Below, piece after piece: positions 28,258 through 29,745 of a DNA stretch of 54,395 nt. The stretch lies in UHGV virus genome UHGV-0107341; one strand, 5' to 3'. How positions within the stretch are numbered: the first letter of the stretch is position 1; each line of letters starts with the position of its first letter. This DNA is from a virus. The notes beneath the pieces are model-generated. The model saw nothing but the letters and a program-made list of their open reading frames with translations. It did no database searches and was not told the origin of the DNA. The translations under genes were made by a program, and so were the position numbers.

Positions 28258-28299
28258 TACCCTTCCTTCCAACCGGCTATGTTGGCCGGTTTATTCAAC

Positions 28300-28308
28300 T
28301 TATCCACA
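28300..28308 (+). promoter_or_regulatory. DnaA box (TTATCCACA)
   Basis: Exact 9-mer DnaA-box consensus about 100 bp upstream of the iterons. Confidence 0.6.
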
Positions 28309-28313
28309 GCATA

Positions 28314-28370
28314 GATCCAATAAACAGATCCCAAAGAGAACCTAGGAAGATCCAAAGAAGATCCCGGATC
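28314..28370. other. cluster of five GATC (Dam) sites within oriR
   Basis: agatcc / agatccc repeats at roughly 28314, 28327, 28349, 28360, 28367; matches the P1 oriR organisation. Confidence 0.6.
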
Positions 28371-28411
28371 GCTGTAAGCCGCGCCGTTCATGGCCTGAAA
28401 CGGGATCAACA

Positions 28412-28516
28412 TTGACTATACGCGATTTTATGTTGACTGTGTGCGATTTTATGTTGACTGCACGCGATTTATTGTTGACTATACGCGACAGAAACGTTGA
28501 CTGTACGCGATTTTAG
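28412..28516 (+). repeat. origin iterons: five direct 21-bp repeats (TTGACTNNNCGCGATTTTATG)
   Basis: Perfect 21-bp periodicity immediately upstream of repA. Confidence 0.8.
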
Positions 28517-28591
28517 AGCCTGAATATTCACAGCTGTTGATAACAGTCATCTAAATTAACGCCAGGCCGCGCCACACATGGAGAAACCACG

Positions 28592-29476
28592 ATGCCGGAA
28601 GAAAGTAAAGGCTTCCTTAGCGTTGAAGAAGTTGCAGGAAATACAGGAGAAATCCACAGCCTGAAGCCCAATAACAACAGCACTATACAACCCATAGCTT
28701 TGTTGCGCTTAGGTGTGTTTGTGCCAACCTTAAAATCTACCAATGTGGCGCTACGTCGCGGATCGTCAGTTACAACAAACACAACGAACGCAACCGAAGA
28801 ACTATCAAGCCTCAAAATTGTTGAGCAGGAAGGCTATGAGGGAATTGAAATTCATGGTCCACGCCTGGATATGGATACTGATTTTAAGGTGTGGGTGGGC
28901 ATAACCTCCGCGTTGTTTGACTATGCTCCTGATGATGACGGCATAATCACCCTGCCATTCTCCGAGTTTGCCGATCGATGCGGCTATCCACGTAAGCGCC
29001 TTTCAAAGGCGTTCCGTAAAAGTATTGATGACTCTCTGACACGCATTCAGCAGACAGTTGTCAAATTCCGCTTCCCGGCGGCAAAAGGTCATCTCAATAA
29101 CATTAACGTCAACTTGTTGGCATATAGCAGCCTGAATACCGAGCTTGATGTTATCGAGATCCAGCCGCAAAAACAGCTATCTGAACTTTACTATGTTGAC
29201 TATAAGCGAATCCTGAAGCTGAAGATGCTGGATAAGCTCGGGCGCAAAGAGACGGCCAAGGTGCTGTATACATTCTTTGAGGCTCTACCCGCCAACCCGG
29301 CACCTGTCAGCATTGAGCGCCTTAGAGCAAGGCTTAATCTCAAATCATCCGTTAGCGTGCAAAATAGCGTTATCAGAAAAGCCATGAAAGATTTGGAAGC
29401 TATTGAATATCTTAAATTTTCAGAGATAAAAAACGGCAGAAAAATCGGCTTCCAGATCCATAAGCGCAATCCATAA
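28592..29476 (+). CDS. repA: plasmid replication initiator RepA (iteron-binding, P1 RepA-like)
   Basis: Flanked by iteron clusters on both sides; motifs TIQPIALLRLGVFVP and GPRLDMDTDFKVWVGI match P1 RepA as recalled. Confidence 0.8.
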   Translation: MPEESKGFLSVEEVAGNTGEIHSLKPNNNSTIQPIALLRLGVFVPTLKSTNVALRRGSSVTTNTTNATEELSSLKIVEQEGYEGIEIHGPRLDMDTDFKVWVGITSALFDYAPDDDGIITLPFSEFADRCGYPRKRLSKAFRKSIDDSLTRIQQTVVKFRFPAAKGHLNNINVNLLAYSSLNTELDVIEIQPQKQLSELYYVDYKRILKLKMLDKLGRKETAKVLYTFFEALPANPAPVSIERLRARLNLKSSVSVQNSVIRKAMKDLEAIEYLKFSEIKNGRKIGFQIHKRNP

Positions 29477-29478
29477 TA

Positions 29479-29745
29479 TTGACTATATGCGATAGCGAGA
29501 AGTTGACTATAGGCGACATTCGTTGACGCTGGTGGATTTTTGCTGGCGTCAATATTCTGCAAGTCGCTATTGAGATGGCTTTTAGGGTCATTTCATCGCG
29601 TATAGTCAACGTTTCTCCCGACAATATCTTACATAGTCGATCTTTGGTGGAGTTAAATCGACTACAGTCAACTTTTGACTGTAGTCACATCGCGCATAGT
29701 CAACTATTCACATTAACCTTCGCGCATAGTCAACATTTGCGCGGT
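29479..29745. repeat. downstream iteron cluster (incA-like), repeats in both orientations
   Basis: Multiple copies of TTGACTAT(A/G)(G/T)GCGA and its reverse complement TCGCGCATAGTCAAC between repA and the next gene. Confidence 0.65.

Follow-up and report, generated by a model that had tools for sequence, protein, structure and literature searches.

A probable p0111-type plasmid replicon in the P1-like phage-plasmid genome UHGV-0107341, with a base-level map of its cis elements

Replicon of the p0111 Type

The virus genome UHGV-0107341, analyzed here as one stretch of 54,395 nucleotides (“the window”), carries a repA gene surrounded by DnaA boxes, Dam methylation (GATC) sites, and two groups of iterons. 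Together these elements, at positions 28291–29736, very probably form the replicon that maintains a P1-like phage-plasmid as a plasmid prophage, and this replicon belongs to the p0111 type, a sister of the IncY replicon of P1 within a shared RepA/iteron family. For every part, the data described below show that it is present, how it is arranged and conserved, and to which family it belongs. A previous sequence-only reading of the window had listed a DnaA box, five GATC sites, five iterons, repA, and a second iteron cluster, all of which were recovered at the positions it gave and exceed what is expected by chance. Its broader proposal, an iteron-controlled and DnaA/Dam-associated plasmid replicon with the organization of P1 and with parABS downstream, is supported by an element-by-element parallel to P1 and by conservation among relatives.

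The replicon is a catalogued and already known type that is almost unchanged in hundreds of sequenced elements. In the literature found, it is treated only as a repA marker and the iterons, DnaA boxes, and Dam sites of the p0111 type are unmapped; the base-level map of these cis elements is the sole addition made by the present analysis. Three elements of the map go beyond the sequence-only reading, namely a twelfth iteron located within repA, a DnaA box on the right-hand side, and a second, degenerate DnaA box in tandem with the perfect one.

The gene neighborhood is that of a P1-like phage-plasmid, with dmt, rdgC, upfC, upfB, ppfA, mlp, and upfA before the replicon and parA, parB, gene 23, and gene 22 after it, and the order upfB-ppfA-mlp-upfA-[replicon]-parA-parB-23-22 is the same in RCS47 and in P1 (annotated locus AF234172, L002, used as the P1 reference throughout). 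According to the identity profile against P1 and the matches in PLSDB, the cassette that replaces the oriR-repA-incA segment of P1 spans 28291–30644 on the plus strand and consists of the origin, repA, the control iterons, and a T5orf172 gene.

The 1511-bp replicon region (28260–29770) is 99.5% identical to that of RCS47, and 97.3–97.9% identical to phi456, Ro157c2YLVW, SJ46, JL22, and some records labelled P1; several plasmids of Escherichia coli and Salmonella carry it at 100% identity. In PLSDB, 556 records match this region (378 with at least 80% of the query covered), and the 2259-bp core at 28386–30644 was found in 391 records at an identity of at least 97% and a coverage of at least 80%. 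The plasmid records bearing the cassette are circular and approximately 90–100 kb in size, and most are non-mobilizable. At the protein level, RepA is 100% identical to that of RCS47, 99.7% to its SJ46 and JL22 counterparts, and identical at 292 of 294 residues to that of pO111_2 (NC_013370.1) from E. coli O111:H- 11128, the plasmid which we take to be the p0111 reference of PlasmidFinder. A genome-contig search with RepA, in a collection holding one genome per species, returned only one identical locus (L004).

These assignments agree with the published record, in which P1-like subgroup 1 has two replicase families, IncY and p0111, at a single position (PMC7969092). In JL22, a “repA” (p0111) and an unknown gene, gp57, are found in place of repA (IncY), and the p0111 type accounted for 24 of 55 elements (PMC9603915). 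The RepA of SJ46 was reported to be 42% identical to that of P1 (PMC5241659), and p0111 repA serves as a screening marker (bioRxiv 10.1101/2025.09.12.675607).

A more distant lineage was available for comparison in the locus L005, at 3700–5115 of a 91-kb E. coli contig (DABKFZ010000018.1), whose RepA (P0003) shares 85% of its amino acids with that of the window. A further locus, L012 (CP042620.1), encodes a RepA that is 99% identical to that of L005 and is therefore not an independent third lineage.

Origin Region

The origin begins with a tandem pair of DnaA boxes on the plus strand (28291–28308), identified by pattern match and by alignment to P1. The first box, TTATTCAAC (28291–28299), is degenerate and the second, TTATCCACA (28300–28308), is perfect. 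The perfect sequence has only two copies in 54 kb, which alone is not significant; the pair aligns with the annotated DnaA binding site of P1, TTATCCACATTATCCAC. Following the boxes is a heptamer array (28312–28370) that carries five Dam sites and reads TAGATCC, CAGATCC, (GAGAACC), AAGATCC, AAGATCC, and GGATCG. The GATC sequences start at 28314, 28327, 28349, 28360, and 28367, with a sixth at 28404, amounting to six in 100 bp compared to 3.9 per kb window-wide. Every other 100-bp span holds at most three, making this the densest GATC cluster in the window. When aligned to P1, the array matches the five annotated Dam sites slot for slot, and a similar array is present in the phage-plasmid SSU5. 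A GC-rich spacer with an AT content of 42%, compared to 59–61% on either side, occupies 28373–28408 and includes the sixth GATC; its sequence, GCCGCGCC, is common to P1 and L005.

Five direct iterons on the plus strand (28409–28515), the equivalent of incC in P1, were recovered by repeat scan, pattern search, and a position weight matrix (PWM). They share a conserved core of approximately 16 bp, GTTGACTRTRNGCGAT, inside a 21-bp period, and the cores start at 28412, 28433, 28454, 28475, and 28497 (spacing of 21, 21, 21, and 22 bp). When the core pattern TTGACTRTRNGCGA was searched in the window with up to two mismatches, 13 matches were obtained against 3.8 expected, a number that none of 100 shuffles reached, and 12 of the 13 lie within 28412–29733. 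The PWM was trained on 11 copies, with 20 whole-window shuffles as controls. The training copies scored 24–33 bits, the best match outside the training set scored 17.8 bits and lies inside repA (29193–29214), and the shuffle maxima had a mean of 12.1 bits and a highest value of 21.1 bits.

Another DnaA box, TTATCAACA (28535–28543, minus strand), was found by pattern match with one mismatch in the interval that separates the origin iterons from repA. L005 reads the perfect TTATCCACA at this very position, within a leader that is otherwise 49% identical, and P1 likewise has box-like sequences between its iterons and repA, which suggests that the right-hand box is a genuine DnaA site of the kind seen in P1.

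RepA and the Iteron Within Its Gene

The gene repA (28592–29476, plus strand), identified by Pfam, BLAST, and AlphaFold2, is preceded by a GGAG ribosome-binding site and encodes a p0111-type winged-helix iteron initiator of 294 amino acids. It is flanked by its own repeats, with five at a 21/22-bp period upstream and six to eight downstream. The Pfam domain Rep3_C was detected at 27.3 bits, above the cut-off of 21.1, and relatives at 44–53% identity have precomputed matches to PF01051. Compared to P1 RepA, the identity is 42% over 272 amino acids (E 9e-71). An NCBIfam scan of RepA, the T5orf172 protein, and P1 RepA gave no match, and a sequence search of the Protein Data Bank with RepA gave nothing below E = 0.39. 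The AlphaFold2 model, based on 31 homologues, has a predicted local distance difference test score (pLDDT) of 70.7 and a predicted template modeling score (pTM) of 0.63, with low confidence for residues 1–71. Foldseek matched the model to RctB domains 2–3, RepE, pi, the first winged-helix domain (WH1) of pPS10 RepA, and TrfA, with E values from 2e-7 to 5e-3 and a probability of approximately 1.0. The fold predicted by the model is that of a two-winged-helix iteron initiator.

The twelfth iteron, ATGTTGACTATAAGCGAAT, is located inside repA at 29193–29211 on the plus strand, where it covers codons V202–R206. It fits the core pattern perfectly and is the match outside the PWM training set mentioned above. 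L005 and L012 share a 17-nucleotide run of it (29195–29211) exactly, and the run is flanked on either side by synonymous changes. The constraint at this site is modest, as a run of five synonymous sites without change would be expected with a probability of approximately 0.02 at the observed rate, and repA has two longer runs of identity to L005 (28859–28890, 32 nucleotides; 29403–29430, 28 nucleotides). The former run encodes the family-wide motif GPRLDMDTDFK and is also the stretch of DNA that can be aligned to P1 repA. In a Proteus relative with a RepA of 53% identity, a perfect 19-nucleotide iteron is also found in repA (L007, 4424–4442), with the reverse orientation and elsewhere in the gene. 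The intragenic iteron is the one mildly unusual feature of the replicon. It may be a working RepA site that adds a control step beyond those of P1, a possibility that we consider rather doubtful.

Putative Downstream Control Iterons

The second iteron cluster starts at the end of repA, and its first copy adjoins the stop codon, as in P1. The forward set (29476–29541, plus strand), defined by pattern, PWM, and conservation, consists of F1 (29479), F2 (29503), and the variant F3, TTGACGCTGGTGGATTT (29523; copy at 29522–29540). The reverse set (29591–29736, minus strand), defined by repeats, pattern, and PWM, consists of R1 (29596), a decayed copy (approximately 29622–29643), R2 (29658), R3 (29690), and R4 (29720). 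The strong copies are F1 and F2 in the forward orientation and R1 to R4 in the reverse orientation, and the cluster overall comprises two to three forward and four to five reverse iterons. L005 conserves the variant third forward copy (TTGACGCTGGYGGATTT), has an intact iteron in place of the decayed copy of the window, and lacks a counterpart of R4. The sequence-only reading had the downstream iterons running up to T5orf172, and indeed the last iteron ends at 29736 and the ATG of that gene is at 29769. The same reading took low-copy maintenance to be apparent from this arrangement; low copy number and a copy-control role of the downstream iterons would be expected from the analogy with P1 and are not visible in the sequence.

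A perfect 12-bp palindrome, GACTACAGTCAA-CTT-TTGACTGTAGTC, is also present at 29660–29686, built from R2 of the reverse set together with a partial copy in inverted orientation. It is reminiscent of operators in other plasmids that consist of inverted half-iterons and are bound by dimers of Rep, and it is not conserved in L005.

Conservation and Probable Function of the Replicon

Comparison with L005 separates the elements that were kept from the sequence that was not. The nucleotide identity of repA between the window and L005 is 75%, with synonymous change in 53% of the conserved degenerate codons. L005 nevertheless keeps the DnaA box, the heptamer array with all five GATC copies and its decayed slot, and the sixth GATC, as well as five iterons at the same spacing (21, 21, 21, and 22 bp), the intragenic iteron, and two forward and four reverse control iterons. 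The DnaA-box/GATC array (28300–28372) is 93% identical, with an invariant perfect box at 28300–28308, and 62 of the 65 fixed core positions of the origin iterons are conserved. The identities of F1, F2, and F3 are 88, 94, and 89%, respectively, and those of R1–R3 are 81–94%, whereas the leader after the last origin iteron is conserved only to the 49% given above and the spacer after F3 to 33%. The retention of cis elements while the spacers decayed argues for function.

The replicon could in principle be a conserved but inactive relic in an element maintained by another origin, either outside the 54-kb window or the lytic repL/oriL. Such a reading draws on the fact that the function of the replicon rests on sequence, that only part of the element is visible, and that the consensus scan recognized no repA promoter. 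We regard it as very improbable, as the open reading frame (ORF) of repA is intact and 99–100% conserved over hundreds of records, the cis elements were selectively kept relative to a 75%-identical lineage in which the spacers decayed, the replicon sits exactly in the slot of the essential plasmid replicon of P1, and the literature takes p0111 repA as the replicon marker of P1-like plasmids.

Several points nonetheless weigh against interpreting the region as the maintenance replicon of a plasmid prophage. The Rep3_N domain of RepA scored 22.0, marginally under the Pfam gathering score of 22.4. No sigma-70 promoter for repA was recovered by the consensus scan within the iterons or adjoining them, so that autoregulation by promoter occlusion is a proposed mechanism. 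The downstream cluster has six strong control iterons (eight slots) compared to nine in P1, and control may differ in detail. The intragenic iteron has no counterpart in P1 repA, for which the P1 iterons were extracted and scanned. The literature found contains no experiment on the p0111 replicon, such as a mini-replicon, a RepA footprint, or a test of Dam dependence. Finally, the window covers only 54 kb of the element, and a second replicon may lie elsewhere.

Manual inspection for a repA promoter gave two weak candidates, which are not claimed here: the TTGACT of an iteron as a −35 element with GACTAT 17 bp downstream, and TTCACA at 28527 with TAAATT at 28552. An Rfam scan of 27500–31000 (E ≤ 0.1) gave no match and thus no known antisense or regulatory RNA in that interval.

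The L005-type replicon lacks adjacent parAB and is located between a transglycosylase gene and tail genes. It also occurs on other phage-plasmid-like plasmids of E. coli and E. marmotae of approximately 90 kb. Its occurrence in a different backbone indicates that the replicon module has moved between backbones.

Relationship to IncFIB and IncY Replicons

Some database records annotate this protein as “RepFIB replication protein A,” and the p0111-type replicon could accordingly be viewed as an IncFIB (RepFIB) replicon that came from a plasmid of the F or SSU5 type. The identity of RepA is somewhat higher to the proteins of the SSU5 group (45–48%), which are typed as IncFIB, than to that of P1 (42%) (PMC7969092), and the left part of the origin resembles that of SSU5. 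However, an identity of 45–48% is far below that seen within one type, and the SSU5 iterons, AACCACTGTAGAGAG, are unrelated to those of the window. The nearest non-identical relatives of RepA are the 85% lineage and then the 53% Proteus protein, with nothing between, and typing schemes keep p0111 apart from IncFIB (PMC9603915; bioRxiv 10.1101/2025.09.12.675607). An IncFIB origin of the replicon is therefore highly unlikely.

SSU5 itself (L003) contains two DnaA-box/GATC-heptamer modules, at 1795–1838 and 2170–2213, which are 80% identical and each have their own iterons spaced at 21 bp, and this suggests that SSU5 has a duplicated origin.

The p0111-type replicon is bounded sharply relative to P1. 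In a BLAST comparison with the P1 locus, 25136–28385 and 30645–33668 align and there is almost nothing between them. The sliding identity to P1 is 93–100% up to approximately 28290 and then falls to 83, 80, 70, and 63% in successive 30-bp windows; the similarity is lost from the iterons onward, with none after 28412, and identity is back to 100% at approximately 30650–30660. The breakpoints are thus at approximately 28290 and 30645. The left part of the origin (28291–28412) shares 69% identity with P1 and 71% with the unrelated SSU5, and its similarity to P1 is family-level conservation of the sites for host factors. A 97% BLAST alignment extending to 28385 had suggested an origin whose host-factor half came from P1 and whose iteron half was foreign. 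A P1-derived half-origin was rejected because the drop in sliding identity starts at approximately 28290 and the left part is equally similar to SSU5.

There is practically no chance that the region is the IncY replicon of P1 itself (oriR, incC, repA, and incA) in a slightly diverged form, as, despite the P1-like flanks (UpfA 98.5%, ParA 99.7%, and ParB 100% identical), the shared layout, and the alignment to 28385, the two RepA proteins are only 42% identical, the iterons are unrelated to GATGTGTGCTGGAGGGAAA of P1, a megablast of the region against P1 records matched only 49 bases at the left edge, and 28291–28412 is about as similar to P1 (approximately 69%) as to SSU5. The earlier description of the replicon as P1-type accordingly applies to its layout, which is that of P1, and not to its lineage, which the RepA identity and the unrelated iterons place outside the IncY replicon of P1.

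T5orf172 and Partition Genes

The T5orf172 gene (29769–30578, plus strand; Pfam T5orf172 and phrog_2876) encodes a GIY-YIG-like protein of 269 amino acids and is not part of the replicon proper. It starts 33 bp past the last iteron, within the segment that differs from P1, and separates the replicon from parABS; a terminator-like hairpin (30586–30600) is located behind it. The gene had no match in PADLOC, and phrog_2876 is a family of unknown function. T5orf172 is present in all 391 PLSDB records that have at least 80% of the 2259-bp cassette at an identity of at least 97%, and it is split into two ORFs in pO111_2. The L005-type replicon is without T5orf172, and its similarity to the window stops just past R3. 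The gene is thus an accessory, acquired by the replicon within the P1-like lineage, where it has become fixed. The sequence-only reading called this gene “inserted.” It is indeed extra relative to both P1 and L005, but within the P1-like p0111 lineage it is fixed in a 2.26-kb cassette shared by approximately 390 plasmid records and is no recent insertion in UHGV-0107341.

Partition genes follow on the plus strand. The ParA encoded at 30747–31943 has the Pfam domains HTH_54 and AAA_31, the ParB encoded at 31960–32961 has the Pfam ParB domain, and both are nearly or fully identical to the P1 proteins, as given above. The parS centromere (incB) at 32966–33048 is identical to the annotated parS of P1 at 80 of 83 positions. 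ParA and ParB of RCS47 (L001) are those of the window and are 99.7–100% identical to P1 AF234172, which is at odds with the SJ46 paper, where they were described as P7-like and distant from P1 (PMC5241659). With a type Ia ParA bearing an N-terminal helix-turn-helix, a ParB, and a parS, the system is a ParABS of the P1 type (incB).

Proposed Mechanism and Significance

RepA binding, Dam dependence, autoregulation, handcuffing, and copy number at the p0111 replicon are inferred here by homology with P1 oriR, and the individual steps are drawn from established knowledge of that origin. RepA monomers would bind the five in-phase origin iterons, and host DnaA at the flanking boxes, together with RepA, would open the adjacent heptamer array. 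The GATC sites of the array may couple initiation to Dam methylation and to sequestration by SeqA. When bound to the origin iterons, RepA would in addition repress its own gene, which is the weakest link of the scheme, as the repA promoter was not located by consensus. Titration of RepA by the downstream iterons of both orientations, and their pairing with origins (“handcuffing”), would result in a low copy number, and the P1-identical parABS would segregate the copies. If the intragenic iteron is used, RepA bound there could block elongation of the repA mRNA, or the site could serve as an additional partner for handcuffing.

Since the RepA/iteron pair differs from that of P1, replication incompatibility with P1 and P7 should be absent, whereas partition (incB) incompatibility with P1 should remain because parABS is identical to that of P1. 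Replication compatibility with IncY P1 has been suggested previously (PMC7969092).

The main value of the analysis is for annotation and typing, as it places the element among the p0111-type P1-like phage-plasmids, which are frequent carriers of genes for ESBLs (extended-spectrum beta-lactamases) and of other cargo in E. coli and Salmonella. Across P1, p0111, and SSU5, the specificity module (iterons and RepA) is fully diverged, whereas the host-factor module (DnaA box and Dam heptamers) remains recognizable. This pattern of divergence is expected for the RepA/iteron family and is not surprising.

Comparison With Known Systems

The closest known systems are the p0111 elements pO111_2, RCS47, SJ46, and JL22, in which the replicon occupies the same position between upfA and parA and each of which has the T5orf172 gene (“gp57” in JL22). 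No substantive difference from the window was found other than the split T5orf172 of pO111_2.

P1 shares with the window the tandem DnaA boxes, the GATC heptamer array with five Dam sites, the GC-rich spacer, and five iterons spaced at 21, 21, 21, and 22 bp, which is the spacing of P1 incC iterons 14–10. The likeness extends to DnaA-box-like sequences, repA, and control iterons that begin at the stop codon with forward copies before reverse copies (three forward and then six reverse in P1 incA), and to the same slot in the backbone next to a near-identical parABS. In both, the heptamer array has six slots with one decayed slot each, in different places. On the other hand, the 19-bp iterons of P1, GATGTGTGCTGGAGGGAAA, are unrelated to GTTGACTRTRNGCGAT of the window, and P1 has two perfect left DnaA boxes where the window has one. 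Conversely, only the window has T5orf172 between the control iterons and parA and an iteron inside repA.

The SSU5 group (IncFIB-typed, with related RepB/RepFIB-family proteins in Enterobacterales) has the same architecture, with a RepA identity of 44–48% (45% for SSU5). The left part of its origin is 71% identical to that of the window and includes CAGATCCCAAAGAGAACC. This group differs in having its own iterons, a longer RepA (330–350 amino acids), more control iterons, and another phage backbone.

The Proteus relative (RepA 53%) has a plan like that of p0111 with its own iterons. In the Proteus mirabilis contig of this relative (L007), repA is followed at 4831–5500 by 11 tandem 43-bp units, each with an iteron-like TTGTTGAAGCAAGACGATTT, and the block of origin iterons is duplicated upstream (3375–3484 and 3728–3837); the contigs are approximately 220–385 kb in size.

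At the level of fold, the modeled RepA resembles the WH1-WH2 arrangement of F RepE, R6K pi, pPS10 RepA, RK2 TrfA, and Vibrio RctB domains 2–3, all of which act at iteron-based origins. These initiators of solved structure differ from the RepA of the window in sequence, with identities of 11–14%, and the TM-scores are modest (0.27–0.46).

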